A stretch of DNA of 64,000 nt, taken from a virus. Numbering within the stretch: the first letter of the stretch is position 1; each line of letters opens with the position of its first letter. A model generated the notes under the pieces. That model had not been told where the DNA came from and made no database searches. It worked only from the letters and a program-made list of their open reading frames with translations. This document shows, in pieces, positions 15,625-64,000 of the stretch. Position numbers and translations under genes: made by a program. The stretch lies in IMG/VR virus record IMGVR_UViG_3300045988_160012. The stretch is one strand, 5' to 3'.

Positions 15625-15625
<1 letters not shown>
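15549..15625 (-). promoter_or_regulatory. tandem promoter region: sigma70-like element copy 2 (15587-15625) followed by phage 18-bp motif (15549-15566) upstream of nrdD
   Basis: Same ~40-bp element as at 205-248 and 32430-32472; motif TGTATAACCTTAATAGTT. Confidence 0.45.
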
Positions 15626-18223
<2,598 letters not shown>

Positions 18224-32488: not shown

Positions 32489-32914
32489 TTATTTTAAATA
32501 AAAATTTGCTACGTGTTCTACCAATTCTCGCATTGAATCACATATACGTGTACTACACTCTACCAACCAAGGATGTAATTTATTACCGTCCTTATTTAAT
32601 GCAATAACAGGTATATGATATTCTTTGGCTATCATCAACTCCATAGCAGTACCAATACTTTTAGGGTTATTAAAATTAACCACCACTAAATCTGCTTTTC
32701 TAAGCCATGCCAATTCAAACTCCATAGCTTCTCTTTCAGATTTATGTTCTGTTGTTGCTGGAGAATAATATTCTGGTGGGCTAAAAAATATTGGCTTTTT
32801 GATAATATCATAATCACCATATAATAATGCATCTTTAACTTGATTTCTCCATTTTAGCTGTTCTTCTAATGTATAGCCAGACATTCCACCAGCCATATAA
32901 ATACGCACATCCAT
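32489..32914 (-). CDS. nucleoside 2-deoxyribosyltransferase-like (Rossmann) protein
   Basis: IYMAGGMSG ... E..W...ADLVVV pattern. Confidence 0.4.
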   Translation of the reverse strand: MDVRIYMAGGMSGYTLEEQLKWRNQVKDALLYGDYDIIKKPIFFSPPEYYSPATTEHKSEREAMEFELAWLRKADLVVVNFNNPKSIGTAMELMIAKEYHIPVIALNKDGNKLHPWLVECSTRICDSMRELVEHVANFYLK

Positions 32915-33510
32915 TACATATCACCTCTCATTTGTTGATAAAATGGTACTGTCATAAGCTCTGCACGAATTTCATCATACATTTTATGAAGTCTAGGATT
33001 TACCCAACGCATCCACTCTTTACGATTATCCTTAACCATATATTCTCTAACCTGAGTAGCGGAAATTGGGATTCTTCCTCTATTAACAATTAACTGAGAC
33101 ATATCTATAATGTCCTCTGCTGCAAACCATCTGGTTCTTTCTTCATCATTTCCAGAAATCATTAATTCTGGAACTTTATAAATATATCTATCAGCATTTC
33201 CGAGAAGATATTTACCCCAATCTGGTGTAATATCATTTTCATTTGTCAAATCTGCTAATCCATATATCATAATATTTGAATTGTCACCATAGATTTCTTT
33301 GAGCATTTTGGTTCTGGTATTGATATTCAAAGGATTTCGTTCTGTGCCACATTCTTGAGCAGAACCAATCAAAATCAATACTCTATCACAAAGTTCTAAT
33401 CCTGTTTTAACCAATGATTCATGTCCTTTGTGAAAAGTCTGAAATCTACCACAAATCATTCCAACATCATATGGTTTCATATTTCCTCCTTTAGATAACA
33501 TATTATCCAA
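32914..33510 (-). CDS. nadM: nicotinamide/nicotinate mononucleotide adenylyltransferase (NadM/NMNAT-like)
   Basis: GMICGRFQTFHKGH matches the (H/T)xGH cytidylyltransferase motif as found in NadR/NadM NMNATs. Confidence 0.7.
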   Translation of the reverse strand: MDNMLSKGGNMKPYDVGMICGRFQTFHKGHESLVKTGLELCDRVLILIGSAQECGTERNPLNINTRTKMLKEIYGDNSNIMIYGLADLTNENDITPDWGKYLLGNADRYIYKVPELMISGNDEERTRWFAAEDIIDMSQLIVNRGRIPISATQVREYMVKDNRKEWMRWVNPRLHKMYDEIRAELMTVPFYQQMRGDM

Positions 33511-33865: not shown

Positions 33866-34322
33866 CCTCTTTATCCTCCTGTGAATCAGGAATCAACTCA
33901 GGATTGTCAAAAATATTACCTACAACTTCTATATTATTCAGACAAATTTCTTTACCTAAAGGATACCATTTATGCTCTGTATAATCCAAAAATACATATG
34001 CACCATAGTCTGAAGAATATGAAATTAAACCAACCATGCCCGATTGAATTGCTTTACATATATCTCCCTCAAATATCAACTGTTTATTTTTATCCAACAA
34101 ACCTGTGTCAATTTGATATACATATCTATTATCTGATATAAGAGATAAAGTCATATTACCTAAAAGGTTCTTTTTTGCTAAATATAAATCATTGTTAGGA
34201 GCAAGATAAATATTCTCTTTTACCCATGTAGTTTCCTTTTTGTCATATACTCTATACATTTGCTTCCTCCTGTTCTGCTTTCCATAAGTAAAATTTCTTT
34301 CGGAGATTACAAATATCGGCAT
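33846..34322 (-). CDS. YopX-family phage protein
   Basis: C-terminus VVGNIFDNPELI is typical of YopX. Confidence 0.55.
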   Translation of the reverse strand: MPIFVISERNFTYGKQNRRKQMYRVYDKKETTWVKENIYLAPNNDLYLAKKNLLGNMTLSLISDNRYVYQIDTGLLDKNKQLIFEGDICKAIQSGMVGLISYSSDYGAYVFLDYTEHKWYPLGKEICLNNIEVVGNIFDNPELIPDSQEDKEDGQQTL

Positions 34323-36495
34323 ATGATTTTGCAGCTTCTTTTTCTTCTGGAGTCATATTTAAGAAAGTTGATTTACACCATCCTAAAAATTCATTTTCTT
34401 CTCTAGTTAATAAACTGCCTGTCCATTTGTAATTACCATATCGTAAAACAGATTGTGCTACTCCTCTTAACTTCTTCCAATATTTATAATAAAAGAGTTT
34501 AAGCTTTGTCATATATCCCACAGAATCTTCTATTACAAATCCCTCTATATCATTACCTTTGTATTTATATCCTTCTGCTGTTACTTCATTGTACCAAGCA
34601 TAAAAATCTTCCCATGATTCAATTACAAATGCCTTTTCTTTTACCTTGATACCTAATTTAGTTGCTAATTGGAATAATTCATCATAAGGCAATTTCTCAA
34701 ACTTCATTTGATTTTTCACTACATCCAATAAAACAACTTTACTTTCTGGATATTCAATAATATGTGGGTCATTTTCCATATCACAACATTCAAAAACAAA
34801 TGATACATTATTCTCTTTGATATAATCTTTAATTTTATTCATGGTATCAGTTCCATAAAAGCGATATAAAGCCTGTCTTAAATATTCAGAAAAGCAGCCT
34901 GTAGGTGTTGATTTACTTGTAATCAGCAAATCATCTGATTCTGGATTCCAACCAACAATACCCAAAAATCCATTCTCTTTTACATAAGCTGTAACTGGAA
35001 AATGTAATTTATATTTAAGATTTCCAATTCTAGTTTCAGGTCTTTCATTAATATTAAAGAACTTATCGTATGCTCTGGCTACGATTTTATAATCCTGTGT
35101 ATCAATATAAAGTCCTCTAGCTTTATTCGTAATGGAATCCCATACACCATTTTCAAAAGCCTGTCTTGTGAAATTAAAAGAAGATACTCTACCAAATTCT
35201 TTTTCAAAAATATATTTGTTCTGTCTTAATTCTGAAACAAAAGAATATACATCAACATCTACATTTTCTGCCATTTCTGATTCTTCAATCTGTTTTGTTG
35301 GTTCTTTAAAAACAGTATTCTGGATTTCAATAGGATGTAATTTATCTTCAGTAATCTGAAGAACCCTTAGACATCCACCAAATTCAATTTCACCTTCTAA
35401 GTTAAAAGTTCTTTCGGTTGTCTGCATAGGTGATTTAACAATATTTCTATGACCATGAATCTGATACATATTATGCGGTGTATTGTCAACAAACGATTTA
35501 TCTACAATATCAGCATCCGCATATCTGCCAACACCTTTTATCATCTGTTCTGTTGCAACTTTTAACAAATTATCGTCAGGGAAATTGCTAATACCACCAT
35601 GCGTTACAATAAAAGTTTTTCCTCGATATATAAAATAGCAACACTGATTTAATCTTCGATAAAATTCTCGTACTCTTTTCTGAGATACACCAGCCTTTAC
35701 TAACTGTGGCTTTGTCACAAATTCAAATTCTTTTGAACGAGAAATCAGATTATTCGCCCACATCCATAACCATCTTTCATGATTACCTTCAAGAAAAATA
35801 ACATTTGGTAATTTACTTAACTCACACAGATAGTTTATTGTTTCTGCATTTTCAATACCTCTATCAATGTAATCTCCACAGAATATATAAAATTCATCTT
35901 CCTTAATATTTCCATTAGAATCCATATATTCTTTAAGAGCTGTATAACATCCATGAATATCACCAAAAACATGAATTTTGTTATACTGGGATAAATCCAT
36001 TGGACGATACCAGATTCTATCTAATTCCTCTGGTTTTAATACAGTAATGCCAGATGGAATCTGCTGGGTTTCAAAACGTGAATACATTTTATCAATAACT
36101 TCTTTAGGAACTCGTTTAAGTGTCTCTCTCTCTGCGTTTCTTCGCTTAGTTTCCTCAATTGGAATATCAGTCATATCAATACAGTAAATTCTATAACGAT
36201 AATTTTCAGCTAAATCTTTATACTGATTCATTTCAGATGTCTTTGAATTTGTAGCATCAATCACTGTAAATTCACCATTCTGCATACGTGTTTCCAATAT
36301 ACGAAACAATGTGTTCCATACAGTTTTTTCATTGTTTCCAGAGATAACACATTCTCCATTTATGTCTAATACTGGACTCTGACAAAGCAAACGAATATCA
36401 TCTGCTGATAAAGCATAAGGTTTTAATCCATGCTTTTCAATAAATGTACTTTTGCCACATCCAGCACTACCACGCATAAGCAACAATGCTCTCAT
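34252..36495 (-). CDS. pnkp: trifunctional polynucleotide kinase-phosphatase-ligase (bacterial Pnkp-like RNA repair enzyme)
   Basis: N-terminal P-loop kinase GSAGCGKST. Central calcineurin-like phosphoesterase (GDIHG, GDYIDRG, GNHE). C-terminal NTase/ligase-like domain with a lysine motif VKENG (KxDG/KxNG). Confidence 0.7.
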   Translation of the reverse strand: MRALLLMRGSAGCGKSTFIEKHGLKPYALSADDIRLLCQSPVLDINGECVISGNNEKTVWNTLFRILETRMQNGEFTVIDATNSKTSEMNQYKDLAENYRYRIYCIDMTDIPIEETKRRNAERETLKRVPKEVIDKMYSRFETQQIPSGITVLKPEELDRIWYRPMDLSQYNKIHVFGDIHGCYTALKEYMDSNGNIKEDEFYIFCGDYIDRGIENAETINYLCELSKLPNVIFLEGNHERWLWMWANNLISRSKEFEFVTKPQLVKAGVSQKRVREFYRRLNQCCYFIYRGKTFIVTHGGISNFPDDNLLKVATEQMIKGVGRYADADIVDKSFVDNTPHNMYQIHGHRNIVKSPMQTTERTFNLEGEIEFGGCLRVLQITEDKLHPIEIQNTVFKEPTKQIEESEMAENVDVDVYSFVSELRQNKYIFEKEFGRVSSFNFTRQAFENGVWDSITNKARGLYIDTQDYKIVARAYDKFFNINERPETRIGNLKYKLHFPVTAYVKENGFLGIVGWNPESDDLLITSKSTPTGCFSEYLRQALYRFYGTDTMNKIKDYIKENNVSFVFECCDMENDPHIIEYPESKVVLLDVVKNQMKFEKLPYDELFQLATKLGIKVKEKAFVIESWEDFYAWYNEVTAEGYKYKGNDIEGFVIEDSVGYMTKLKLFYYKYWKKLRGVAQSVLRYGNYKWTGSLLTREENEFLGWCKSTFLNMTPEEKEAAKSYADICNLRKKFYLWKAEQEEANV

Positions 36496-50027: not shown

Positions 50028-50786
50028 TTAAATTGCAACAGGTAAATCATTCGGTGTATAGACTGGCATTGGTTTCAGCTTAAAAATATTCTTCTTATGC
50101 ATAGAGTCAATCTTATGTTTGATATTTTCATCTTCACATTCACCTGTTCTGATATATCTGTTAAGTGTTGCATATGAAAATCCCAGATTATCTTCATCTG
50201 TAAGTCCACACAAACCATCAATCGGAACTTTTCTTGTCAACTCTTTAGGTAATCCAAGATACTCTCCAATAGCAATTACTTCATCGGTTGTAAGCAGAGA
50301 TAACGGACTAAAATCACCAGCTCCATCACCGTAACGTGTAGCGTATCCCACCCAATCTTCACTAAGATTACAAGTATTTGCCACTCTGCCATTTAAAGTC
50401 TGTGCAATAGCATATAATGTAGCCATTCTAATTCTTGCTGGAAGATTGGTACTTGTCTGCATACTCCAATGGTCGCACAACTGAGGTTTGATTTCATGTT
50501 TCAATGATTTAATTGCTCCATGAATGTCTACCGTATAGTTTTCAATACCAAGATGGTCAACAAGTTTGTATGCCATATCAATATCTGACTGTTCACCATT
50601 TGGCATAAGAACACCAATCACTCTATCTTTTCCCAGAGCTGCTACACATAATGCAGCAACTACGCTTGAATCTTTGCCACCTGAAATACCTACTACAGCA
50701 TCACAACCATTTCCATTAAGTGAAAACCAGTCCTGAATCCATGCGATAATTTCTTTTGTTGTCTTTTCTACATTAAACTTATACAT
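50028..50786 (-). CDS. nadE: NH3-dependent NAD+ synthetase
   Basis: PP-loop VVGISGGKDSSVVAAL and NadE-like length and pattern. Confidence 0.8.
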   Translation of the reverse strand: MYKFNVEKTTKEIIAWIQDWFSLNGNGCDAVVGISGGKDSSVVAALCVAALGKDRVIGVLMPNGEQSDIDMAYKLVDHLGIENYTVDIHGAIKSLKHEIKPQLCDHWSMQTSTNLPARIRMATLYAIAQTLNGRVANTCNLSEDWVGYATRYGDGAGDFSPLSLLTTDEVIAIGEYLGLPKELTRKVPIDGLCGLTDEDNLGFSYATLNRYIRTGECEDENIKHKIDSMHKKNIFKLKPMPVYTPNDLPVAI

Positions 50787-50846
50787 TCTGTACTTTCCTT
50801 TCTATTCAATTTGAGGTGGACTTTCATCCACCTCACCAACAATTGC

Positions 50847-51374
50847 TTAACCTAAATCATATCTCCAAATTTCTACATCTACAGAAGATTTACCAAACAC
50901 ATCCTGAATAATTTTATACACATCATTCCAATCTGCACCACCTCTATAGCTTCCAATTCGATATGGCATAGCAACTGTCGCTCCAATCTTCTCAGCTTTC
51001 TCACGAACATCCAAGAAAGCCATTTTCATTGCAGTTAAATCAGTCTGCTGCTCATCCATACCAAAATTCTTCTGACCAAAAAGATTAACAATATACTGAT
51101 ACTTAGAATCATATGCTTCAACATTTTCATTCTTCATAGTATCAACCATTACCATAGCCCATGTATCAACTGGAACATACTGAACTGTTCCAAGCATTTC
51201 AATTTTATTTTTATTGCAATGCTTCACATATTTAACATATGCCTTTTCAACATGAGGGTATCTGTCAGCTACCTGTGCTGCTACACCGCTTCCCATAACA
51301 CCTAAACAATTTGTCTGGTGTACAATAAAATTTGCATCTGAATCAAAAAGATTTCCATTGATGTTCTTAATCAT
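50847..51374 (-). CDS. macrodomain protein (ADP-ribose binding/processing)
   Basis: MIKNINGNLFD...FIVHQTNCLGVMGSGVAAQV matches the macro-domain signature. The start is probably the internal Met at 51374, not the annotated 51431. Confidence 0.7.
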   Translation of the reverse strand: MIKNINGNLFDSDANFIVHQTNCLGVMGSGVAAQVADRYPHVEKAYVKYVKHCNKNKIEMLGTVQYVPVDTWAMVMVDTMKNENVEAYDSKYQYIVNLFGQKNFGMDEQQTDLTAMKMAFLDVREKAEKIGATVAMPYRIGSYRGGADWNDVYKIIQDVFGKSSVDVEIWRYDLG

Positions 51375-51387
51375 CTTTATCCCTTTC

Positions 51388-51638
51388 TTAGAATCCTTTA
51401 CTTTCTGCATGGATGCTATTTCTGATTTCATTTAATGTCTGGTTACGAACAACCTTACCATTAAGGAATACAGTCTCAAGCATATTAATATCAGACTCTT
51501 TCACATCATCTGTTACAACCTGACCCTTTTGGATTCCATCAATATATTTGATTTCTCCATCTTTGTTACGATATACTCTGACCATACCCTTCTGAGATTT
51601 CTTAACACCATCACCTGTTTTCGGGTCTTTTTGAACAA
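51388..51638 (-). pseudogene. nadV: 3' fragment (~83 codons) of the NAMPT/NadV-like gene, separated from its body by the IS insertion
   Basis: The frame is open from the IS boundary: VVQKDPKTGDGVKKSQKGMVRV...NMLETVFLNGKVVRNQTLNEIRNS. This matches the conserved NAMPT C-terminus (..VFKDP...KKG..L.HTVFKNGKV...DEIRKNA). Confidence 0.7.
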
Positions 51639-51920
51639 CCCCGCCCGACGGGTCGGACGAGGATTCCGTTGCAGCCGTCAGGATTTCTCACATTGGGATG
51701 CATTGGAACCGCGATTTAGTCCAGAGTTACGCTTTTCCTAACTTCGCCGACATCTTGCGGTGCTTTGTAAGTCAGGAACAGGATTGCCCTAGTGCCGTCC
51801 GTCCACCCCCACATTGTATCATACGATTGATACACATCCAGAAAGTGGTGACAAAAGGGCAAGATTTACAGTTACAATTCTATATTGTTTTCGGGTTACC
51901 TTGATTAAAAAGTTTATAGA
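51639..51920 (-). ncRNA. putative omegaRNA/reRNA scaffold of TnpB (3' end of tnpB through right-end hairpin)
   Basis: GC-rich, structure-rich non-coding stretch between the tnpB stop and the IS end. Its position matches the established location of TnpB guide RNAs. Confidence 0.35.
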
Positions 51921-53666
51921 TTACTCAAATACTGGCATATACCGTATTTTCATTTCAGCGGCTAAAGTTCTTAAACTTGGTCGCTTTCTTTCTTCTAGCA
52001 CCTCATACGGAATGCTTCGGTAGAAGAAATGTTTTCGAATACCTGAAAATGTATTTGTGATCCTTGCCCAGATATTCTTGTAGGTTTCTTGTGAAAACTC
52101 TGGTACAGTACCTTCTTTTGTTTTCAGAAGATTTAGCATCCGCGAGTCTGGTACCAGTTTCTCATACAAACCGAGACCTACCAGACCAATCGTATATGCC
52201 GCAGCTTGATGAATGGAAATTCCATACTTTCGCATGAACAGAAACTTTCCCATTTGACTGGTATAGGCCGGATCAATCTTGCAAAAGGCAATTTCTCGTT
52301 TTAAGCTCTGATTTTCGATGCTTGATGCAATCCTCTGATAAGCAAATAAGGTCATATGATGATTTCCTTTTCGATTTCCGTATTTTCTGGATGCCAGTTT
52401 GATCGTCAAATCAATGTCTTCCACAATGAGACGTTTATCCTTTTCTGCACACCAATCAAATATATCCTTCACTGCTGCTCCCAAAATATTTGTAACCTGA
52501 CCAGTAGATTTGTTCATAAGGTCAAATCGAATTAACTTCTGGTCAAGCAGTTTTCCGGTTTCATCCAGTTCTGCCAATGCAAAATGATCATAATTAATAT
52601 CCATAGAAATTGCACCATTTCCGTAATAACTGTTTTCATATGCTTTTAGCTTCATAGTAACGGAGATGATCAGATACTGCTTATTTTCCTTATCACGCTT
52701 CAAAATGAAATTGTAGCAAAGTGACTGTCGATCTTCTGGCTTGCAGGTAAAGTTTTTCTGAAAACTTTCTTCGTTTCTTGGAAGCTTAAAATCATGAAAG
52801 ATCGTAACAGAACCATCTATGCAGGTAACAGACAGATCTTTCCCATCATATTTACACAGGAAGTTTCCATACTTTGACGTATGTCTGCCCGGAAGTGACA
52901 TACTCTGGTGGCGCTTTTCAAAAAACTCTTGTCTCCATTTATTAGATGCCTTTTTCGAAGTTTTCTGGTCCTTATCATTTGATGAATCATCGGATTTTGT
53001 AACTTCAACTACATCTTTCTCAGAATACAACTTCTTTCCACCAAACACAATCCGCTCTGGTGGAAGTTTTTCAAGGTTCTCCAGTTTCTTCGCTTTGCGT
53101 TTTCTTGCTTCTGTTACCAAAGCCAAACGTGTCTTTAACTTACGAATATCAGCTTCAACCTTACGCTCATACTCATCCAGATTCACCATCATCTTATTAA
53201 ACAAAATGATCTTAAATCCTCTAACCTTCGACTGGCATTTCGGATATGGTTTAATCCATTTTTTTGTTTTTATATAGAGACGAATGGAGTTTTTAATTGC
53301 TCTCTTTTTATCCAACTCTTCTTTCACAGACTGAATCTTTTCATCACGATTCTTTAAATCTGCAGCGATTGTCGTTTTATAATACTTTTTTAGTTCCTTT
53401 TGTGAAGAAATCTGTCCAGAAGCTGCTGTATAGATTGCTGCATTATAATAATCATTGGTTTTGTATTTTTCTTTCAAAAAGACAGGATAGGCATGGTCAA
53501 GTAACGGCCCTGCATTTAAATATTTCTGATCATAGAGTGCATTGTACAGATCCATTTTGGCATCATTAAATACACGCATCGTCTCTAGAAGCGATGCGGC
53601 ATTTTCAATGGTTTTCTTATCTAAATAGTAACGCTTATCCGAATTGATTGTCCTTGATAGTTCCAT
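51921..53666 (-). CDS. tnpB: TnpB-like RuvC nuclease (OrfB_IS605 family), atypical long form
   Basis: RuvC-I ISMDINYDHFA, RuvC-II RLIVEDIDL, and the hallmark IDPAYTSQ. Probable ATG start at 53666 with RBS CCGAGGT (the track start at 53705 is a TTG). No CxxC...CxxC zinc finger after PAYTSQ. Confidence 0.6.
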   Translation of the reverse strand: MELSRTINSDKRYYLDKKTIENAASLLETMRVFNDAKMDLYNALYDQKYLNAGPLLDHAYPVFLKEKYKTNDYYNAAIYTAASGQISSQKELKKYYKTTIAADLKNRDEKIQSVKEELDKKRAIKNSIRLYIKTKKWIKPYPKCQSKVRGFKIILFNKMMVNLDEYERKVEADIRKLKTRLALVTEARKRKAKKLENLEKLPPERIVFGGKKLYSEKDVVEVTKSDDSSNDKDQKTSKKASNKWRQEFFEKRHQSMSLPGRHTSKYGNFLCKYDGKDLSVTCIDGSVTIFHDFKLPRNEESFQKNFTCKPEDRQSLCYNFILKRDKENKQYLIISVTMKLKAYENSYYGNGAISMDINYDHFALAELDETGKLLDQKLIRFDLMNKSTGQVTNILGAAVKDIFDWCAEKDKRLIVEDIDLTIKLASRKYGNRKGNHHMTLFAYQRIASSIENQSLKREIAFCKIDPAYTSQMGKFLFMRKYGISIHQAAAYTIGLVGLGLYEKLVPDSRMLNLLKTKEGTVPEFSQETYKNIWARITNTFSGIRKHFFYRSIPYEVLEERKRPSLRTLAAEMKIRYMPVFE

Positions 53667-53699
53667 GCAAATTACCTCGGTTGAAAAATAGGTTAACTG

Positions 53700-53755
53700 T
53701 TGCAATATCTCTTTAAATATGCTATTATTATAGCATATTTAAAGAGATATTGCAA
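53700..53755. promoter_or_regulatory. perfect 26-bp-arm palindrome (TTGCAATATCTCTTTAAATATGCTAT tatt ATAGCATATTTAAAGAGATATTGCAA) between divergent tnpB and tnpA
   Basis: Read directly; sits in the divergent promoter/operator position. Confidence 0.7.
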
Positions 53756-53786
53756 GTATCGATTGTAAAATGAACGGAGGTTTCTT

Positions 53787-54236
53787 ATGGACGATTTAAA
53801 CAGAAAACGACATGCCGTTTACAAACTCACTTATCATGCAGTGTTTGTTATTAAATATCGCAGAAGGGTAATGACAGAACCCATCATTACACACATGAGA
53901 CAGTATGCTACTCATCTGATTGAACAGTGTTATCAGGGAAAGCTTCTCGAACTAAATGGAGAACCCGATCACATCCATATCCTGTTTGAACTTCCTGCAA
54001 CAGCAGCTCCATCCGTTGTTGTGTGCAGTCTTAAGACCCAACTTTCAAAAGAAGTTCGAGCAAAATTTTGGGATAAGATCAAAGATAAGCTCTGGAAGGA
54101 TAGCTTCTGGTCAGACAGTTATTTCATTACCACTACCGGAGGCGCAAACATTGAAACACTAGAAAGATATATCCAAGACCAAGGGATTGAAAAACCAAAA
54201 CGAAAATATACCAAAAGACAAGCAAAGAAAATGTGA
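53787..54236 (+). CDS. tnpA: IS200-type HuH Y1 transposase
   Basis: HuH motif DHIHILF; catalytic Tyr region FWSDSYFITTTGG; RBS GGAGG. Confidence 0.85.
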   Translation: MDDLNRKRHAVYKLTYHAVFVIKYRRRVMTEPIITHMRQYATHLIEQCYQGKLLELNGEPDHIHILFELPATAAPSVVVCSLKTQLSKEVRAKFWDKIKDKLWKDSFWSDSYFITTTGGANIETLERYIQDQGIEKPKRKYTKRQAKKM

Positions 54237-54293
54237 AAATACCATTGCACTTGATATTGATTTATTTTTTATGCCGCATTCATCCCCGCCCGA

Positions 54294-55838
54294 CTATGTC
54301 GGACGAGGTTTTCTGCGGAGAACTGGATAAACCAAAATAGGTTTACCATTGATTTCAGCATATGTAGCTTTATAAGCCCAGCCCTGTGTATCTCTTGTGT
54401 TATACTGGAAACTGTAAGAACCAGCACCAAATACTACATTTTCAACTGCATAGCCAAGGTTAGTCATATGATTACAAATGCTTTCACATCTTTCAAGTGT
54501 AATAGCATCTCCGTACACCATTCCAATATGAGAGTCTAATACTTTATACCCCTTAGAGTTTATAGTTCCACCGAAAATCTCCCAAAGAATATCCAGTGTT
54601 CCTCTCTCTTCAATAGTGGCATCACGATATGTGAATGTGTCGTTCTCACCATCATTAGACCATGTAGCAATATATTTCTTATTTCCAATCTCAAGGTAAA
54701 TTGGAACAAGCTGTCCAGACGTATCTGTTTCATTGCAATAAAGTGACTGCATCATCGGACTTCTGGTATAGTAAGATTCAAATGCTTCTTTACTTTCATG
54801 GGCTTTCCACATTGGGGCAATACCACAAATAATCTCTTCTGGGTCACCGCTGTCAGGTCTAATATTGATTCTGCCTGTATGATTAAGAATTACATCCTTA
54901 TTTTTTCTAACAATATTGTCAACAAAATTCCAGTAATCATAACTGTCTGCCACAAAGCTGAAAGGTTTATTTGGATAAAGCTCTTTACACATTCTTACAA
55001 AAAATGTTTCTTCATCTCCATCTACTGCATAATTGCTTGTAGTACAAGAATGTTCAACAGATGCAGACCAGCTTCCAACATCCTCATTTTCAACATCAGC
55101 TCCATAGTAATCACAAAGATACTGAATTGAAGGGATTGTAGATGTTTTATCGAAGCTTGTTAAAAATGCAGCTCCGCTTGTAATAGCAGCATCAAGACTA
55201 GCCATACCTCTAAAAGAAAAATCGCCACAACCAACTCTCTTCCAATTCGGATTGTCAGATGTTAAAACAATATATTTTTCAATAATCTTTCTGTAAATAT
55301 AAGCTCTTGTTGCTGTTGTTGTAGGTAACCATAAATTACAAGAAAATAATGTCTCAAGATAATTTGTTACCCATGCAAAATCAGGATGTGTATTTTCGAC
55401 TGTACAACAAGGTACTCTATATGGTACTTTTGTACCTTCTGGCAAAGCCTTAATCTCAATCGGGAGATAGCCAAGTTTATGAAGTGCTTCAATATGTTCT
55501 GTATGAGCATTTTCATCAAATGTATTATGGATATACAACTTATACTCATTAAGCACTTCGTCTAACGGTCTATCAAAGAAATATTCATTAAACTGTTTTA
55601 CCAAATATTCCTTAATAAATCCCTGTAATCCAAACCAGATTACAAATTTGCTCTGAGGAAAGAATTTGTTACTACGTGGTGTCCAAGTGGAATACATCAT
55701 TGTCATTCCATCTGGATACATAGCCCGATGTGCAATTTTATAAAAATCGCATAATAACATCATATTCTTCATTTTACTTATCCTCCTTACAATGGCATCC
55801 ACAACCGCAATCACATACGTTCTCAGCATAATCAACAT
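54294..55838 (-). CDS. nadV: nicotinamide phosphoribosyltransferase-like (NAMPT/NadV or Namat) body; C-terminus truncated by IS (last ~7 codons read into IS hairpin)
   Basis: NAMPT-like length and architecture. The C-terminus ...GKPILVYPVLRRKPRPT* ends inside the IS end. Its native continuation is found at 51638-51388. Confidence 0.7.
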   Translation of the reverse strand: MLIMLRTYVIAVVDAIVRRISKMKNMMLLCDFYKIAHRAMYPDGMTMMYSTWTPRSNKFFPQSKFVIWFGLQGFIKEYLVKQFNEYFFDRPLDEVLNEYKLYIHNTFDENAHTEHIEALHKLGYLPIEIKALPEGTKVPYRVPCCTVENTHPDFAWVTNYLETLFSCNLWLPTTTATRAYIYRKIIEKYIVLTSDNPNWKRVGCGDFSFRGMASLDAAITSGAAFLTSFDKTSTIPSIQYLCDYYGADVENEDVGSWSASVEHSCTTSNYAVDGDEETFFVRMCKELYPNKPFSFVADSYDYWNFVDNIVRKNKDVILNHTGRINIRPDSGDPEEIICGIAPMWKAHESKEAFESYYTRSPMMQSLYCNETDTSGQLVPIYLEIGNKKYIATWSNDGENDTFTYRDATIEERGTLDILWEIFGGTINSKGYKVLDSHIGMVYGDAITLERCESICNHMTNLGYAVENVVFGAGSYSFQYNTRDTQGWAYKATYAEINGKPILVYPVLRRKPRPT

Positions 55839-56709
55839 TCATAGCAAACACAGTTACATTTTCATCACTTTTAAAAGGATAAATGCTATCTGTTGTGAAT
55901 ACATGGTCAATCAGCTTTCTGTGCTGAGTTGTTCCGAAAATACTTTTCTTTTCATAGTCCACTGTAAGAAGATTCATTTTATCGTCACCAAACTGACCAT
56001 CATAAATACTCTTTTCACAATGAGAAACAAACAGATAAATGTTTCTTGCCCCCATCTCTTTCAATTTCTTTGCTGCATAATAGAAAGTTCCACCCTTACT
56101 ACAAATATCATCACGAATAAGAATATCTTTTCCTTTAATATCTTCAGGTTTAATTCCCATGACATCTAATCCAAGAATCCGACCTGTTCCCCATTCTCTT
56201 TTCTTAACACCAAATGCATACGGAATCTTAATCCCTTTAGAATATCTCTTCATAGCCCCCTCATCAGGGAAAAACATAATCGGTGCAATACCATCGTGAA
56301 TCAACATATCAAGCACGTTGCTCACAAAAATATTAGTATTGATTACATTGCAATTCTTGATAGTTGCTGCTACAACACTTGAATGTGGGTCAACTACAAA
56401 TACTCTGTCAAAATTCAGAGAATTAATCATTTCTGCAAAATACTTCATAGCAAAAATATCATTTGGCTCTTCGATTCTGTCCATTCTTGCGTTAGGTACA
56501 TATGGAAGGAAAAGAGATACATTCATTCCATGTGCCTGATAGAATTTTGTTAAGAATGAAACTGCTACAAACTCAGCATCATCCTCATAATTCCAAGTAA
56601 TAACAACTGTTTCTCCCTGTAAGCTAACATCACCTTTTACATTTGCTGTTCCATCAGGAAATCTCTTTACTTCAACTTCTTTTCCATTTACTCTAATCAT
56701 AATCTTCAC
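55774..56709 (-). CDS. prs: ribose-phosphate pyrophosphokinase-like (Prs; or ADPR-PP synthetase Adps of NARP1-type pathways)
   Basis: VKRFPDGTANV...; LPYVPNARMDR; PRPP-binding loop LIRDDICSKGGT. Confidence 0.7.
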   Translation of the reverse strand: MKIMIRVNGKEVEVKRFPDGTANVKGDVSLQGETVVITWNYEDDAEFVAVSFLTKFYQAHGMNVSLFLPYVPNARMDRIEEPNDIFAMKYFAEMINSLNFDRVFVVDPHSSVVAATIKNCNVINTNIFVSNVLDMLIHDGIAPIMFFPDEGAMKRYSKGIKIPYAFGVKKREWGTGRILGLDVMGIKPEDIKGKDILIRDDICSKGGTFYYAAKKLKEMGARNIYLFVSHCEKSIYDGQFGDDKMNLLTVDYEKKSIFGTTQHRKLIDHVFTTDSIYPFKSDENVTVFAMNVDYAENVCDCGCGCHCKEDK

Positions 56710-56751
56710 CTTTCTTTTTAGATGTATAACCTTAATAATTATAACCGTTAT

Positions 56752-57387
56752 TTAGTTTTCATTTGCCTGTGTGGATTCATCTGTATCTGCCTTTGCTTCC
56801 GTTGTTTCTGTAGATTCTGAATTTTCTCCATAATGTCTACCAATTACATCAACCTGACAACTTGCCATTGTTCTGAGAGCTGCATTATGAGCTTTAATAC
56901 TTGTACCAGCACAACAATGACTATCAACCTTAATTACCGTATTTGGCATAGCAGTTCTTAAACCAATGGCATTTGCTACAACACAAATATCTGTGCATAC
57001 TCCGCAAAGTTCGATTTCATCACTACTACTACACACCTGAGAAAGAATTGCAATCAAATCCTTGCTTGCAAATGTATTTTTATCAACTACACCTACATAC
57101 TTTTTCTGTTTGCGAAGCATCTGAACAGCTTCCCAAACATCCTTGTTGATACTTTCTCCACCAGATTTTTTAATACAATGCGGTACAGGAAGTTTCTTGC
57201 CTTCAAGAGTATCCAGATAATTGTCATAATGAATATCTCTTGTCAGATAAATAGAATCATAATCCTTTCCGTATTTCTTCAGCTTTTTTACAAGCTTTGG
57301 CACAATGGCTTTTGTCTCGTCATTTCCTAACGCACCATCAATAAAGTCATTCTGCACATCCACTACAACCAAAATCTTTTTGTTCAT
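56752..57387 (-). CDS. pncA: isochorismatase-family hydrolase, nicotinamidase (PncA)-like
   Basis: VVDVQNDF N-terminal motif; catalytic Cys region ELCGVCTDICVVANAIG. Confidence 0.6.
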   Translation of the reverse strand: MNKKILVVVDVQNDFIDGALGNDETKAIVPKLVKKLKKYGKDYDSIYLTRDIHYDNYLDTLEGKKLPVPHCIKKSGGESINKDVWEAVQMLRKQKKYVGVVDKNTFASKDLIAILSQVCSSSDEIELCGVCTDICVVANAIGLRTAMPNTVIKVDSHCCAGTSIKAHNAALRTMASCQVDVIGRHYGENSESTETTEAKADTDESTQANEN

Positions 57388-57438
57388 AGTTTTAACTCCT
57401 TTACATTCATATTATCGTTGATTATGATTAACCAACAG

Positions 57439-57522
57439 TGCTGGTGATGGGATTCGAACCCACACGTTGTTTCCAACAATAGATTTTGAGTCTACCTTGT
57501 CTGCCAGTTCCAACACACCAGC
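57439..57522 (-). tRNA. tRNA-Leu (anticodon CAA), type II with long variable arm; no encoded CCA
   Basis: Manual cloverleaf with acceptor GCTGGTG/CACCAGC+A, anticodon loop CTCAAAA and T-loop GGTTCGAATCC. Confidence 0.8.
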
Positions 57523-57526
57523 TTAG

Positions 57527-57599
57527 TGTGCCATATGGGATTCGAACCCATGACCCTTTGATTAAAAGTCAAATGCTCTACCAACTGAGCTAATGGCAC
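57527..57599 (-). tRNA. tRNA-Lys (anticodon UUU); no encoded CCA
   Basis: Acceptor GTGCCAT/ATGGCAC+A; anticodon loop CTTTTAA; T-arm GGGTTCGAATCCC. Confidence 0.8.
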
Positions 57600-57889
57600 A
57601 TATCCATAATGACCTTTCATAACATTATGGCGATTTGAGCGATTTCCATTTCTGTTTCATAAGAATTTTCAGATATTCTCTTATCTTACTTTTTTACTTG
57701 AATTATATATCATTTCAAATTCTAAGCTATCTTATAACGGTACTGTGTCTGGGGCTACTCCAGAGCTGCTAATTTAATAGCTGTCTAATTATCAGTGACA
57801 CTCCTTTGGTTTTACGTTTCGTTCGGGCTTTTGCTCCAATTCTTAATAATGCACACCATATAGGCGAAACGACAGGTTTTGATATTTAA

Positions 57890-57961
57890 CTGGGGTAATC
57901 GGATTCGAACCGATGTATGCAGCAGTCAAAGTGCTGTGCCTTACCGCTTGGCGATACCCCA
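57890..57961 (-). tRNA. tRNA-Gln (anticodon UUG), U1:A72; no encoded CCA
   Basis: Acceptor TGGGGTA/TACCCCA+G; anticodon loop CTTTGAC; T-arm ATCGGTTCGAATCCGAT. Confidence 0.7.
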
Positions 57962-58299
57962 ATGGGTAGATGCGGTTTTACCTATAATTAGTAGCTAATC
58001 TAATTATGTTCTCCTACCGCCTAAAGGATGCACATTTTCATTTCAACCCACGCATTGTCTGCATTTACAACACTTGAACACTGACGCAGTTCCCTACGCT
58101 ATCTTCAATATAGCTGTTTATGTTTCTCCAGTGGCGAACTGGCAATGGTTAGCCAACCCATATATAATGAAAATAGTCTAAGCGTTAGATAGATTGCTCT
58201 ATCCGCTGGAATCGTACCAGCCCATCAACTATTGTTGAATCGAACCTCGCTTTTATTTTGCTACTTATTAGCCTTGTGTAAAATCTTCAGTCAGGAACA

Positions 58300-59243: not shown

Positions 59244-59612
59244 TTTGATTCCTCCTTATTATTTAACCTTTAATATAATGTATAACCTTAACAGTTATAT
59301 CTTTAAAAGAAAGCTTTTTGAATCTCTCTTAACTTGTATTCAGTATAGCACATTGCTTACTACTTGTCAACAACTATTTTAAAGTTTTTATCACTTATTT
59401 ATGTTGTTGTTACCGTCTTTCAATACATCATAGCACACAGAAATACGGAATTTTTACACATAAAACTAATATTTTATGTGTTAGTGAATATGAAATGCCA
59501 CCTGATTTTAAGTGTGTTTGGGAAAAGCAAGTAACATCCAGCTTAAAAGTTCATGAGCATATAGCCCGAACAGAAAAGCTTTTTATGTTGCATCCAGATA
59601 AATTACATACAT

Positions 59613-60248
59613 TTAAAGGGTGTTAATAGATACGTTGAAGCATAAAATATTAGTTTCTGCCACTTTTCTACACCAATCATAGAACTGTTCATAGTCAAAT
59701 TCACCTGTAGAATACTTTGTAACCCCTTTATATGGTGGGTCACAATAGATTAAAGTACCAGATAATGTATTCATATCAATATCCAGATAATTTTTACTGG
59801 TCAATTTAACATCTTGAATAAGCGGAACTTGTCTCATAATATTCCTTATTGCTTCATTTGGAATATCTCTAGGGGTTACACCATCTGCTTTAAATCCTCT
59901 GGCATAACCACCAAAGTATTTTGAACCAAATGTACTACAGAATCCAACCAATCCAACATAATAATCAGGATAATTCTCTTTGTTTAATCTGACAGAATTA
60001 TATTCATCTTCTGATATTGTTGATGGTGGTATCCAGCCTTCCTGAAGTTTTTTCAATAAAGCAATCAGTTCTTTATGAATGTCATTACCCACACGAACCT
60101 TACAATGAATTTTATCCATCATGTTCAATCCACCGCAGAATGGTTCGTAGTAGATACTGACATTATTATCATCAATTAGTGATTGTAATATTGGTGCAAT
60201 TTGTTTTGATACCTTATTTTTGCTTCCAACGTACTTAATAACAATCAC
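59613..60248 (-). CDS. dam: DNA N6-adenine methyltransferase (Dam family)
   Basis: KYVGSKNK (cf. KWAGGK), motif I YYEPFCGGLNMM and motif IV CDPPY. Start codon uncertain (GTG/ATT adjacent to AAGGAG). Confidence 0.7.
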   Translation of the reverse strand: MIVIKYVGSKNKVSKQIAPILQSLIDDNNVSIYYEPFCGGLNMMDKIHCKVRVGNDIHKELIALLKKLQEGWIPPSTISEDEYNSVRLNKENYPDYYVGLVGFCSTFGSKYFGGYARGFKADGVTPRDIPNEAIRNIMRQVPLIQDVKLTSKNYLDIDMNTLSGTLIYCDPPYKGVTKYSTGEFDYEQFYDWCRKVAETNILCFNVSINTL

Positions 60249-60570: not shown

Positions 60571-62178
60571 TTAAAACATTTTATCTTCATCAATGTCTGT
60601 ATCAACATTGGTGTCGGTGCTTTTATCTGTAGAGATACCTACATTCACACTTGGTACAGATGGTGTACTTAATTTTCCACCAAGAAAACCACCCAGTAAT
60701 GCAGTAATATCAATACCTGTAGACTCTTTGATTCCATCTGTAACCTGACTCATAGTTGTCATGATGTTACCAGCTAACTGTGAAGAATCTCCACCGAACA
60801 TTTTAATAGAATCAACATTTGTATAACCCTTACCAACAGCTTCGGCAATCTTCGGTAACTGTTCAAAGTAAACCTTGATAGTATCAAGTTCCATCTGCTG
60901 TCTAGCTGCTTCACCATATTCTTTCATGGCTTCTGCCTTTTTCTGAATACCAGCAGCTTCCGCTTCTGCTTTAGCTCTTGTGGCTTCCGCTTCTGCCTGT
61001 CCTTTTGCTGCAATAGCTTCTGCTTCTGCTTTACCAGCAGCTTTTACTGCTTCTGCTTCCTGTTCCTTAGAGAATCTTTCTGCTTCTGCCTTTGCTTTAC
61101 GTGACTCGGCTTCTTTCTCTGCTTCAAACTTGTCTGCTTCTGCTCTTTTCTGTCTTTCGAAAAGCTCTGCTTCTGCTTCTTTCTGTCTCTCATACTGTTC
61201 TGCATCGGCTTTCTGTTGTGCTGCATATTTATCTGCTTCTGCTTTCTTTTTAATAGATGCTTCCAGAGTCTTTTCCTGAATAGCAACCTCACGTTCTTTC
61301 AACTCAAGTTCTTTTTCCTGTTTTGCAAGATTGGCATTAGCAGTTGTAATTTCTACAGTCTTTCTCTGTTCCTCTTCCTGAATAGTGTAAGCTGCATCCG
61401 CTTCTGCCTTTTTAATATCAGACTCTTTCTTTAATTCAGCTTTCTTAATATCCAGTTCATTCTGTTTAATAGCAATTTCCGCTTCAGACTGTACTCTTGC
61501 ATCATTCGCTTCCTTAGAAGCTTTTGCCTTTGCGATTTCTACCTCTTTATCAGCATTTGCTTTGGCAATAGCAGCATCCTTTTTAATCTGTGAAATGTTA
61601 TCAATTCCCAAATCGTTAATAACATGATTTTCGTCAGAGAAACGCTGTACATTAAATGACACTAATTCCAATCCCATTTTTTTAAGGTCTGGAATTACAT
61701 TTTCAGAAACCTTTTCAACAAATGTTTTTCTATCTCCAATTAGTTCACGAAGTTTCATTGTACAAATAATTTCACGAATATTACCCTCAAGAACCTCTGT
61801 AACAATATCTCCAATTTCCTGAGTAGACTTATTCAAAAAGTTCTGAGCTGCAATTTCTACCATTTCCGATGTAGAACCAACTTTAACATTTACTGCTGAA
61901 TCAACATAAATATTAATGCAATCAGCAGTAGGTACTGCATCTCCTGTCTTAATATCAAGCGGAATAAGTTTTAAAGAAAGTTTATCCATTCTCTCAAAGA
62001 AAGGAACTTTAATACCAGCTTTTCCAATAAGAACCTTTGGTTTCTTTCTCAATCCTGAAATAATCAAAGCTGTATCTGGAGATGCTTTAACATATCCAGA
62101 TGCAAGAACACCAACTCCACCAACACCTACAACAAAAGGTAACGCAACTGTGATTCCATTCATAACTTCATTTAACAT
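60571..62178 (-). CDS. SPFH/band-7 (flotillin-like) membrane protein with long EA/K-rich coiled coil
   Basis: N-terminal TM plus an SPFH-like domain; Ala/Glu/Lys repeat region (KAEAEA...). Confidence 0.7.
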   Translation of the reverse strand: MLNEVMNGITVALPFVVGVGGVGVLASGYVKASPDTALIISGLRKKPKVLIGKAGIKVPFFERMDKLSLKLIPLDIKTGDAVPTADCINIYVDSAVNVKVGSTSEMVEIAAQNFLNKSTQEIGDIVTEVLEGNIREIICTMKLRELIGDRKTFVEKVSENVIPDLKKMGLELVSFNVQRFSDENHVINDLGIDNISQIKKDAAIAKANADKEVEIAKAKASKEANDARVQSEAEIAIKQNELDIKKAELKKESDIKKAEADAAYTIQEEEQRKTVEITTANANLAKQEKELELKEREVAIQEKTLEASIKKKAEADKYAAQQKADAEQYERQKEAEAELFERQKRAEADKFEAEKEAESRKAKAEAERFSKEQEAEAVKAAGKAEAEAIAAKGQAEAEATRAKAEAEAAGIQKKAEAMKEYGEAARQQMELDTIKVYFEQLPKIAEAVGKGYTNVDSIKMFGGDSSQLAGNIMTTMSQVTDGIKESTGIDITALLGGFLGGKLSTPSVPSVNVGISTDKSTDTNVDTDIDEDKMF

Positions 62179-63486: not shown

Positions 63487-64000
63487 TAATACTGTACAGC
63501 TTCCTGTCTGGTGATAAAGAAATGGATTCCAGCAGCACATTCATCCCATCTGTCTGTCTCAAAATCCTCTACTTCAACCGTTGTTCCTACACGATAAATA
63601 AAATTACTATCGTAATTACTCGGAATTGAAGTTAATCCATCATCCTCACCATCTAAAGTTGTAATAGAAAGAACTTCTGCTTTAGAACAACGACACTTAC
63701 GACTTGTGGCACTGGAACGTAAAGCATCTTCCGTTATTCTAAGTTTTACAATATGACCATTTGCTTTCTTATAACCAATGAATGAACCCTCTTCAGGGCA
63801 TACAAGAGCAAAGAACCCTGTACACTCATCATATCTAACATTCAGGAGGTCAGCACTTCTGAGGTCAGCACCACTGAGGTCAGCACCACTGAGGTCAGCA
63901 CTTCTGAGGTCAGCACTTCTGAGGTTAGCACCACTGAGGTTAGCACCACTGAGGTCAGCACTTCTGAGGTTAGCACCACTGAGGTCAGCACTTCTGAGGT
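63487..64000 (-). CDS. pentapeptide-repeat protein (partial; N-terminus beyond window)
   Basis: The frame is open to the window edge. 15-bp tandem repeats encode [20 protein letters not shown] ... (A[DN]LXX consensus). Ends ...[22 protein letters not shown] at 63487. Confidence 0.65.
63846..64000. repeat. 15-bp tandem repeats (gaggtcagcac[tc][ta]ct), >=10 units, coding
   Basis: Read directly. Confidence 0.9.

Follow-up and report, generated by a model that had tools for sequence, protein, structure and literature searches.

A candidate nicotinic acid-routed NARP1 operon in human-gut phages and its interruption by an IS200/IS605 element

A cluster of five minus-strand genes in IMG/VR virus record IMGVR_UViG_3300045988_160012 is, on our reading, an NAD+ reconstitution operon of the NARP1 type that belongs to a distinct, widespread sub-clade routed through nicotinic acid. 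We give this reading a somewhat better than even chance. A stretch of 64,000 nt of the record was analyzed, referred to here as the window. The cluster encodes a PncA-like nicotinamidase, a Prs-family protein resembling the ADP-ribose (ADPR) pyrophosphokinase Adps, a NAMPT-family protein resembling Namat, a macrodomain protein, and the NAD+ synthetase NadE. These five identities had been claimed in an initial annotation made from the letters alone, and Pfam and NCBIfam matches agreed with all of them at or near the positions given there. The same annotation described the genes as consecutive, which they are not, since a 2,696-bp insertion sequence (IS) of the IS200/IS605 family, with tnpA and a TnpB-like gene, splits the NAMPT-like gene. 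The gene identities and the insertion are established with high confidence, and the insertion disables the operon in the window genome or makes it conditional. The same gene set was found again in more than 110 independent viral contigs, and the grouping is far beyond chance.

In the proposed pathway, NADase defense effectors would split NAD+ into nicotinamide and either ADPR or ADPR-1''-phosphate (ADPR-1''-P). The Poa1p-like macrodomain protein would return ADPR-1''-P to ADPR, by analogy with Adpp of NARP1-AP, and Adps would add a pyrophosphoryl group to ADPR to give ADPR-pyrophosphate (ADPR-PP), as the characterized SPbetaL1 enzyme does. Judging from family-level homology, the phage nicotinamidase would turn nicotinamide into nicotinic acid. 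The Namat variant would then join nicotinic acid and ADPR-PP into nicotinic acid adenine dinucleotide (NaAD), a new step predicted from a residue switch and from genomic context. NadE, again by family-level homology, would convert NaAD to NAD+. In the window genome, the Namat step of this scheme would be genetically interrupted. We infer all of the enzymatic specificities and the counter-defense role from sequence.

The Adps and Namat core pair

NARP1 consists of Adps and Namat (Osterman et al. 2024, bioRxiv 10.1101/2024.02.11.579819), and a Namat structure was reported in 2026 (PMC12774641). When the NAMPT-like gene is rejoined across the insertion, its product matches PDB entries 9W5X/9W5W at 1.1e-148 and human NAMPT at ~1e-59. 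We take 9W5X/9W5W to be crystals of SPbetaL1 Namat because the numbering of Asp13, Tyr15, Arg40 and G390-D400 fits that used in PMC12774641; the joined window protein is 50% identical to this structure. In Pfam it has the NAMPT_N domain, not NAPRTase_N. Namat selectivity depends on a clamp, made of a selectivity clamp helix (SCH) with the motif GSX.X.X.TRD, in which the aromatic X stacks on the adenine of ADPR-PP, and a selectivity clamp loop (SCL), whose third residue is Arg, Lys or Tyr, with that position or the next residue serving as the adenine stacker (PMC12774641). The joined window protein has the SCH motif GSYSFQYNTRD at residues 451-461 and the SCL TPRSNKFF, in which Lys stands at the Arg40 position, with Phe next to it. 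The catalytic His, the equivalents of R306 and D308, the SCH clamp, and the Ser residues found at the Asp215 and Ala242 positions are all encoded in the 5' part of the gene. The window Namat and its 99%-identical relatives also carry an insertion of ~68 aa relative to SPbetaL1 (residues ~319-387, window ~54600-54820), between RPDSGDP and the next conserved block.

The Prs-family protein is closer to SPbetaL1 Adps (37.9% identity, 3.5e-47) than to E. coli Prs (26.4%, 2e-17), and it scores under every NCBIfam Prs cut-off (TIGR01251, 96.5 vs 113). The catalytic Lys, equivalent to K162 of SPbetaL1, is invariant in 73 of 73 sequences. SPbetaL1 Adps makes ADPR-PP from ADPR and ATP and had no Prs activity in assays (bioRxiv 10.1101/2024.02.11.579819). 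The start of the window gene may be read as GTG at 56709 or as ATG at 56700 (308 aa), and the latter, which gene callers used on identical contigs, is the more likely. The Adps stop (55774) is separated by 1 nt from the Namat ATG (55772), which has AGGAGG upstream. The overlap of the two genes described in the initial annotation was therefore an artefact of taking the longest open reading frame (ORF). In one related locus (L105, 7675-8511), the Adps region falls into two ORFs (97 and 158 aa) under the standard code, as in some relatives. Phage Phass-1, which carries the same operon, recodes TAG (code 15), and some members of the group may read through TAG.

Because of the clamp motif, the similarity to Adps, the sub-cut-off Prs scores and the 1-nt gene spacing, we assign the pair by sequence to the NARP1 type, Adps plus Namat, and not to Prs plus NadV. 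A housekeeping Prs of cellular origin was ruled out by the similarity and the curated cut-offs, and a NadV/NARP2 reading of the NAMPT-like gene by the clamp motif and the Adps partner. Of the two pathways that the initial annotation had offered as models, NARP1 stood and NARP2 did not. The two comparisons proposed there came out on the side of Adps over Prs and of Namat over NadV. The homology searches placed the genes neither in unrelated families nor with a housekeeping prs lacking a NAMPT partner.

The window pair has much in common with NARP1 as described: Adps and Namat genes that are adjacent and translationally coupled, an Adps that falls in the Adps clade, the Namat catalytic core, the SCH motif and the SCL stacker, with the SPbetaL1 proteins as nearest relatives. 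It differs in having Ser/Ser for Asp215/Ala242, in being flanked by a nicotinamidase and NadE, which is never so in canonical NARP1, in a predicted Namat product of NaAD rather than NAD+, and in the interruption of the Namat gene in the window genome. NARP2, which is NadV/Nampt plus NMNAT in Vibrio phage KVP40, likewise pairs a NAMPT-family enzyme with an NMNAT in the genome. Unlike in NARP2, the window NAMPT homologue is partnered by Adps, carries the Namat clamp and lacks the nicotinamide-binding Asp, and the NMNAT lies 17 kb away without a Nudix domain.

A nicotinamide-pocket switch linked to NadE and nicotinamidase

The genes that flank the pair point to nicotinic acid. The best solved relatives of the isochorismatase-family protein are the nicotinamidases/pyrazinamidases 1ILW (3.4e-10) and M. 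tuberculosis PncA (3PL1). Among 109 phage homologues, its catalytic triad (D10/K103/C135) and its metal site (D51/H53/H70) hardly vary. From these relatives and conserved sites, the protein is predicted to be a nicotinamidase. NadE scores 176 bits against TIGR00552 (cut-off 63.65), has the SGGKDS P-loop, and was found in 45 of 50,697 deposited phage genome records. PncA makes nicotinic acid, and NadE acts on deamidated intermediates only. No PncB-type nicotinate phosphoribosyltransferase (NAPRTase_N plus NAPRTase) was found in the cluster, the rest of the window not having been scanned exhaustively.

The nicotinamide pocket of Namat is lined by Asp215, which hydrogen-bonds nicotinamide, and Ala242, and the D215A change cuts the NAD+ output of SPbetaL1 Namat 8-fold (PMC12774641). 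At both positions the window Namat has Ser. Asp215 is equivalent to Asp219 of human NAMPT, which sets substrate specificity, and D219S is tabulated for the human enzyme with the words 'switch the substrate affinity' (PMC4919578). These residues were compared in 82 homologues (80 viral loci, SPbetaL1 and phage Phass-1), taking ±10 kb as the neighborhood. All 37 Namats with NadE within 10 kb, nearly always accompanied by a nicotinamidase as well, combine Ser or Ala at 215 with Ser at 242. In the 45 Namats without NadE, position 215 is always Asp or Glu and position 242 always Ala, and neither NadE nor nicotinamidase was found at any of these 45 loci. Other pocket and catalytic residues are unchanged across the 82 homologues: Asp13, Tyr15, Phe189, Arg192, Arg306, Asp308, Gly360, Asp361, Gly390, Thr398, Arg399 and Asp400. 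A reverse search that started from NadE gave 79 more loci, at which every readable Namat (75/75) has Ser or Ala at 215 with Ser at 242, almost all with PncA and Adps. Altogether, the 112 switched-type loci with complete context all carry NadE and nearly all a nicotinamidase, while two contigs stop short of the NadE position.

On a neighbor-joining tree, the NadE-linked Namats form a single clade beside SPbetaL1 Namat, with 36-53% internal identity, and their Adps partners likewise form one clade. The 215/242 switch probably arose once and was then retained together with PncA and NadE through deep divergence, as far as the sequences tell.

Three gut phage contigs found through NadE (L156-L158) lack Adps and Namat and instead encode a nicotinamidase, a DUF5662 protein, PncB, a NadD-like protein and NadE (L156, 7038-10729); their PncB has both NAPRTase_N and NAPRTase (2.8e-67). 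The DUF5662 gene is embedded in this sister operon. Compared with an Adps/Namat-type locus (L105), NadE from a sister contig is 70% identical and PncA 50%. PncB and NadD thus occupy the slot between nicotinamidase and NadE in which Adps and Namat sit elsewhere. PncB and NadD turn nicotinic acid into NaAD. Since Adps and the Ser/Ala-type Namat hold the same slot, between a maker of nicotinic acid and a consumer of NaAD, they would be expected to make NaAD as well, and this swap is the strongest contextual argument for NaAD as their product. The window operon shares with the Preiss-Handler pathway (PncA, PncB, NadD, NadE) a nicotinamidase as its first enzyme, NadE as its last and NaAD as its predicted intermediate, and the three sister contigs encode the full classical version. 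The difference is that Adps and the Namat variant replace PncB and NadD. In place of the two steps from nicotinic acid and phosphoribosyl pyrophosphate (PRPP) to nicotinic acid mononucleotide (NaMN) and then NaAD, a single transfer from ADPR-PP is predicted, which would recycle the ADPR left by NADases.

The order of genes in human-gut phage Phass-1 (OQ749652.1, L082) is nicotinamidase, 'ribose-phosphate pyrophosphokinase', 'nicotinamide phosphoribosyltransferase', a 139-aa protein and NadE, with a tRNA array upstream of the nicotinamidase gene as in the window. The Phass-1 paper (PMC10607447) does not comment on the NAD gene cluster. The 139-aa protein (L082, 11576-11995), which takes the position of the macrodomain, had no Pfam match. 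It has a DxDxT-like sequence, FDFDDTVF, reminiscent of HAD phosphatases, and may be an analogous phosphatase.

The window macrodomain matches the yeast ADPR-1''-P phosphatase Poa1p in PDB (6LFT/6LFQ, ~1e-6), and its phage homologues are annotated as Poa1p-like or 'phosphatase', some beside prs-like genes. In NARP1-AP, a Poa1p-like macrodomain protein, Adpp, is present in 15% of NARP1 operons and converts ADPR-1''-P, the product of aRES defense, to ADPR (2026 preprint, bioRxiv 10.64898/2026.01.28.702374). The window protein is predicted to be an ADPR-1''-P phosphatase like Adpp, a likeness drawn by family through yeast Poa1p. As in NARP1-AP, a Poa1p-like macrodomain gene predicted to serve the ADPR-1''-P to ADPR step is part of the operon. 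The NARP1-AP order is Adps-Macro-Namat, whereas the window has Namat-Macro with PncA and NadE in addition, and the Phass-1 protein at this position has no detectable macrodomain.

The IS200/IS605 insertion and other features of the window

The element lies inside the NAMPT-like gene, after codon 482 (51631-54326). Both of its ends carry imperfect subterminal hairpins, CCTCGTCCGAC..GTCGGGCGGGG, it is inserted 3' of TTTAT, and its right end reads ...GTTGTTCAA. In-silico removal of exactly 51631-54326 gives the in-frame sequence ...PILVY/KDPKTGDG... (the slash marks the junction) and a 562-aa protein whose alignment to SPbetaL1 Namat, its best solved homologue, has no gap at the junction. Three IMG/VR contigs (L001-L003), at 98-99% identity to the window, have the gene uninterrupted, with a protein 100% identical to the joined window Namat; the intact Namat in P0122 is 100% identical as well. 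The empty site in these three contigs is GGTTTAT/AAAGACCCG, and their alignments to the window break at 54327 and 51636. The element shows a fixed 5' target, a seamless empty site (L001) and no target duplication. The initial annotation had recognized the NAMPT-like gene as two pieces, which was right; the limits given for them (54294..55838 and 51388..51638) were ORF limits that included element sequence and are replaced by those in Table 1.

Full-length copies of the element, 81-82% identical in nucleotides, are present in gut Lachnospiraceae (Anthropogastromicrobium aceti and metagenome-assembled genomes) and Oscillospiraceae. All six copies have TTTAT before the left end and GTTGTTCAA at the right end, and the bacterial ones are ordinary IS copies at unrelated sites. 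The hairpins, the empty site and the TTTAT-preceded bacterial copies therefore indicate canonical IS200/IS605 transposition into TTTAT.

The interrupted gene encodes 482 native and 10 element-derived codons, giving a 492-aa product that ends at 54294 and lacks the 80 C-terminal residues. To judge from the alignment with SPbetaL1 Namat, strands belonging to the central sheet of domain A (domain as in PMC12774641) appear to lie within these residues, and because of this loss the truncated Namat is expected to be inactive. Only precise excision of the element by TnpA would restore function to a genome. An exact-protein look-up found the truncated product on at least 8 contigs from several samples and the joined product on at least 8 others, and since the truncated product recurs in this way, the interrupted allele is not an assembly accident. 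No matches to the exact IS/Namat junction strings were found in IMG/VR or JGI metagenome contigs. One ENA contig, ERZ505070 NODE_1 (268,695 bp; L173, L175), holds an interrupted copy at its end and an intact copy ~141 kb away, indicating that both alleles occur in one sample and that the genome unit is ~141 kb. Allele polymorphism within the sample probably led to this contig being assembled as a two-unit concatemer. The phage can thus be described as a human-gut phage with a genome unit of roughly 141 kb, and its host is probably a member of the Lachnospiraceae or a related clostridial bacterium. No near-identical phage was found in INPHARED, where the sole match was one 57-nt stretch.

The TnpB-like protein of the element (581 aa) had no Pfam match and no PDB sequence match at E≤10, and it scored a weak 28 bits against NCBIfam TnpB (cut-off 100). 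Its AlphaFold2 model (pLDDT 86.8) is closest to the folds of Cas12f, Cas12e/CasX, Cas12c/m and RuvC. By fold alone, the protein is a putative TnpB relative, the Cas12f/TnpB-like fold itself being predicted with confidence. At least 342 unannotated proteins of ~565-600 aa make up its family, in which D356, E416 and H486 are invariant, with His at the third acidic position of TnpB (the RuvC Asp), and in whose alignment no zinc finger was found. In this family, a single 99%-identity cluster contains 4,531 sequences. The 290-nt untranslated stretch 3' of the gene folds no better than shuffled sequence (z = -0.9), and no omega-RNA was defined there. The guide of TnpB is transcribed from DNA flanking the right end of the element. 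If the TnpB-like nuclease is active, its guide would aim at the restored joint TTTAT/AAAGACCC... (TTTAT+AAAGACCCG..., TTTAT+AAAGACCCGAAAACAGG), which is the intact Namat allele. Such targeting would favor retention of the element and its spread in mixed infections. Like IS608 and ISDra2, the element has a Y1 transposase, subterminal imperfect hairpins, the fixed pentanucleotide TTTAT on its 5' side, no target duplication, a seamless empty site, and an accessory protein whose modeled fold is a Cas12f/TnpB-like RuvC fold. It departs from known IS200/IS605 elements in the accessory protein, which is 581 aa long, matches nothing in Pfam or by sequence in PDB, lacks a zinc finger and carries His in place of the third RuvC Asp, and in its position within a phage counter-defense gene.

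Table 1. Coordinates of the operon, the inserted element and other NAD+- or ADPR-linked genes in the window
Feature	Coordinates	Strand	Basis
PncA-like nicotinamidase, 211 aa, first operon gene	56752..57387	-	Pfam Isochorismatase 4.4e-17
Adps-like ADP-ribose pyrophosphokinase (Prs family)	55774..56709	-	Closest characterized relative SPbetaL1 Adps
Namat-like gene, 5' part, codons 1-482	54327..55772	-	NAMPT family
IS200/IS605-family insertion element, 2,696 bp, left end to right end on minus strand	51631..54326	-	Hairpins, empty site, bacterial copies
tnpA, Y1 (HUH) transposase	53787..54236	+	Pfam Y1_Tnp (PF01797) 6.8e-33; NCBIfam transpos_IS200 (NF033573) 3.1e-33
Near-perfect palindrome between tnpA and TnpB-like gene	53696..53757		Only spurious miRNA-like hairpin matches in Rfam scan
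TnpB-like gene, 581 aa from ATG; ORF reaches 53705	51921..53666	-	Predicted fold
Namat-like gene, 3' part, codons 483-562 and stop	51388..51630	-	Joins seamlessly to 5' part
Poa1p-like macrodomain protein (Adpp-like)	50847..51374 (alternative start 51410)	-	Pfam Macro 5.4e-6
NH3-dependent NAD+ synthetase NadE, 252 aa	50028..50786	-	Pfam NAD_synthase 4e-52; TIGR00552 6.5e-52
NadM/archaeal-type NMNAT, 17 kb from operon	32914..33510	-	NCBIfam NMNAT families 7e-16; Pfam CTP_transf_like
tRNA-Leu(CAA), tRNA-Lys(UUU), tRNA-Gln(UUG), directly upstream of operon	57438..57962	-	
ADP-ribosylglycohydrolase (ARH)	5108-5926		NCBIfam/Pfam
YpsA/SLOG protein	10913-11389		NCBIfam/Pfam
NAD-dependent ligase	15625-17604		NCBIfam/Pfam

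The macrodomain gene starts 13 nt 3' of Namat, and the G+C content of the operon (0.36-0.38) is slightly above that of the remainder of the window (~0.32). The NMNAT, ARH, SLOG/YpsA and NAD-dependent ligase genes reported elsewhere in the window were recovered by profile matches. The NMNAT is possibly an accessory outside the cluster. ARH, SLOG and the ligase lie 30-45 kb off, and no evidence was found that links them to the operon.

Several further features were observed in the window. At 59463-59656, a 162-bp segment lies between perfect 16-nt inverted repeats (AAACTAATATTTTATG / CATAAAATATTAGTTT); L003, a close relative, has it 100% identical but inverted. The segment resembles an invertible DNA switch and lies beside the start of ORF 59613-60248. 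A tandem 15-nt unit, GAGGTCAGCACCACT (10.3 copies, 88% matches), occupies 63846-64000, runs off the end of the window and is also present in L001-L003. An RNA-repair set at 3679-6954 and 34252-36495 comprises an enzyme of the CCA-adding/poly(A) polymerase family that has an HD domain, ARH, a nucleotidyltransferase of the RlaP family and a fusion of kinase, phosphatase and RNA ligase (Pnkp-like plus T4 Rnl1-like), suggesting a counter-measure to tRNA-cleaving defenses. The window also encodes an SPFH/flotillin-like protein (535 aa, 60571-62178) and an anaerobic ribonucleotide reductase, NrdD (13266-15512), the latter consistent with a strictly anaerobic host.

Weighing the nicotinic-acid route

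The proposal of an NAD+ reconstitution module acting in counter-defense, made in the initial annotation, still appears to be the best reading of the cluster, and the macrodomain fits the NARP1-AP extension. That annotation had also envisaged a broad toolkit able to use ADPR, nicotinamide or nicotinic acid. One linear nicotinic-acid pathway would fit better, as the Asp is lost and PncA and NadE are the partners of the variant. Nor is the toolkit 'unusually complete', as had been suggested, since its central enzyme is interrupted unless the element excises. Given routing through nicotinic acid, ADPR-PP rather than PRPP is quite likely to be the ribosyl donor.

Several observations weigh against the nicotinic-acid reading. 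The NadE-linked Namats descend from a single clade, so their perfect association with NadE reflects one origin and long co-retention, not many independent events. Human NAMPT D219A is tabulated as a loss of activity (PMC4919578), so the Ala-type members show a loss of nicotinamide use and not a gain of nicotinate use. Most members of the clade, the window Namat not among them, have an insertion in the SCH clamp and no equivalent of Tyr396, which makes the ribosyl donor less certain across the clade. The best NCBIfam match of the macrodomain, below its cut-off, is the DarG macrodomain, and a role of the window protein against DarT is possible. An NMNAT is encoded in the window genome and adjoins NadE in six relatives (L049, L062, L064, L070, L077, L161), and a PRPP/mononucleotide branch through this enzyme could operate alongside the proposed route or instead of it. 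Finally, Namat is broken in the window genome itself.

Two other explanations are each unlikely to about the same degree. The first is that the operon is an ordinary NARP1-AP, using ADPR and nicotinamide to make NAD+ just as SPbetaL1 and Vibrio phage Gary do, with PncA and NadE providing parallel salvage through host PncB and NadD and with the 215/242 changes being neutral or a matter of tuning. NARP1 and NARP1-AP are experimentally established, and the window Namat does have a fully canonical SCH clamp and catalytic core. This explanation has to accommodate the hydrogen bond from Asp215 to nicotinamide, the 8-fold effect of D215A, and an acidic residue that was kept in 45/45 unlinked Namats and lost in 112/112 linked ones. 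PncA would also consume the very substrate that a nicotinamide-dependent Namat needs, and at the loci examined PncA and NadE are never beside Asp-type Namats.

The second is a phage Preiss-Handler pathway via PRPP, in which the Prs-like protein makes PRPP, the NAMPT-like protein NaMN, NMNAT NaAD and NadE NAD+, without recycling of ADPR. The NMNAT that adjoins NadE in several relatives, the altered clamp in most clade members and the sister phages with a true PncB-NadD version all speak for it, as does the PRPP activity that Namat keeps in vitro (PMC12774641). However, the Prs-like protein falls in the Adps clade, is 38% identical to an Adps with no Prs activity and stays under all curated Prs cut-offs, and the window Namat has both adenine-stacking clamp aromatics. 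A Poa1p-like ADPR-1''-P phosphatase would be a sensible member of the operon only if ADPR is a substrate, and in most loci no NMNAT is present within the ±10 kb neighborhood.

It is more doubtful still that the operon is a metabolic booster and not a counter-defense system, supplying NAD+ in an anaerobic host to the phage's own NAD+ consumers, such as its ligase and ADP-ribose-handling proteins. The genome does encode an NAD-dependent ligase, ARH, SLOG and other NAD/ADPR-linked proteins, and the persistence of the interrupted allele in several samples indicates that the function is dispensable at least sometimes. Against this, ADPR recycling is useful mainly after NAD+ cleavage, and homologous Adps/Namat/Adpp modules have demonstrated anti-defense phenotypes, although the two purposes are compatible.

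Clostridia are known to carry fusions of IS200/IS605 elements with group I introns, and the element in the window is oriented like the gene. Even so, it is very improbable that an IStron-like self-splicing element repairs the Namat mRNA and lets the protein be made despite the insertion: no group I intron or other ribozyme was found in an Rfam scan of 51300-54500 at E≤10 or in a gathering-threshold scan of the whole window (tRNAs and spurious hairpins only), just ~90 nt lie between the insertion point and the end of the antisense tnpA, the 290-nt 3' untranslated stretch folds like shuffled sequence, and in bacteria the element occurs as an ordinary IS at unrelated sites.

The NARP1 kind of pathway is already known, and NARP3 (PnuC plus NadR) and RyDEP were also described in 2026. 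In the literature searched (one paper collection), no description was found of NadE, nicotinamidase, nicotinic acid or NaAD linked to Adps/Namat, and a 2022 survey of viral NAD+/ADPr systems by Aravind (PMC9503650) does not name NadE or PncA or discuss the cluster. Within that literature, a NARP1-AP-like operon routed through nicotinic acid and NaAD has not been described before. The rarity of NadE in phage genomes may explain why the NadE-linked variant went undescribed.

A fuller version of the nicotinic-acid reading has, in our estimate, an even chance of being right. In it, Namats with Ser/Ala215 and Ser242 would make NaAD from nicotinic acid and ADPR-PP, a reaction not known in biology, and together with PncA and NadE would constitute a further NARP, common in large human-gut phages and interchangeable with PncB-NadD. 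The IS would be a selfish homing element, with its Cas12f-fold D-E-H protein guided against the intact allele. As for what might have favored such a route, we can offer the speculation that clostridial hosts salvage via nicotinic acid and deamidate nicotinamide fast, so that a nicotinamide-dependent Namat would be starved.

NAD+ depletion is among the commonest outcomes of bacterial anti-phage immunity, and NARP1, NARP1-AP, NARP2 and NARP3 have all been described since 2024. The nicotinic-acid route, if true, would add a new enzymatic reaction, explain the NadE and nicotinamidase genes of these phages, and mean that Adps/Namat can replace PncB/NadD. The two-residue switch at Asp215 and Ala242 offers a simple rule, open to test, by which the substrate of a Namat homologue might be read from its sequence. 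The insertion exemplifies IS200/IS605 activity in the genome of a virulent phage, and the coexisting intact and interrupted alleles form a natural knock-out/knock-in pair for the fitness value of the operon. The abundance of the module among human-gut phages makes it relevant to the dynamics between phages and their hosts in the microbiome, hosts that salvage via nicotinic acid included.

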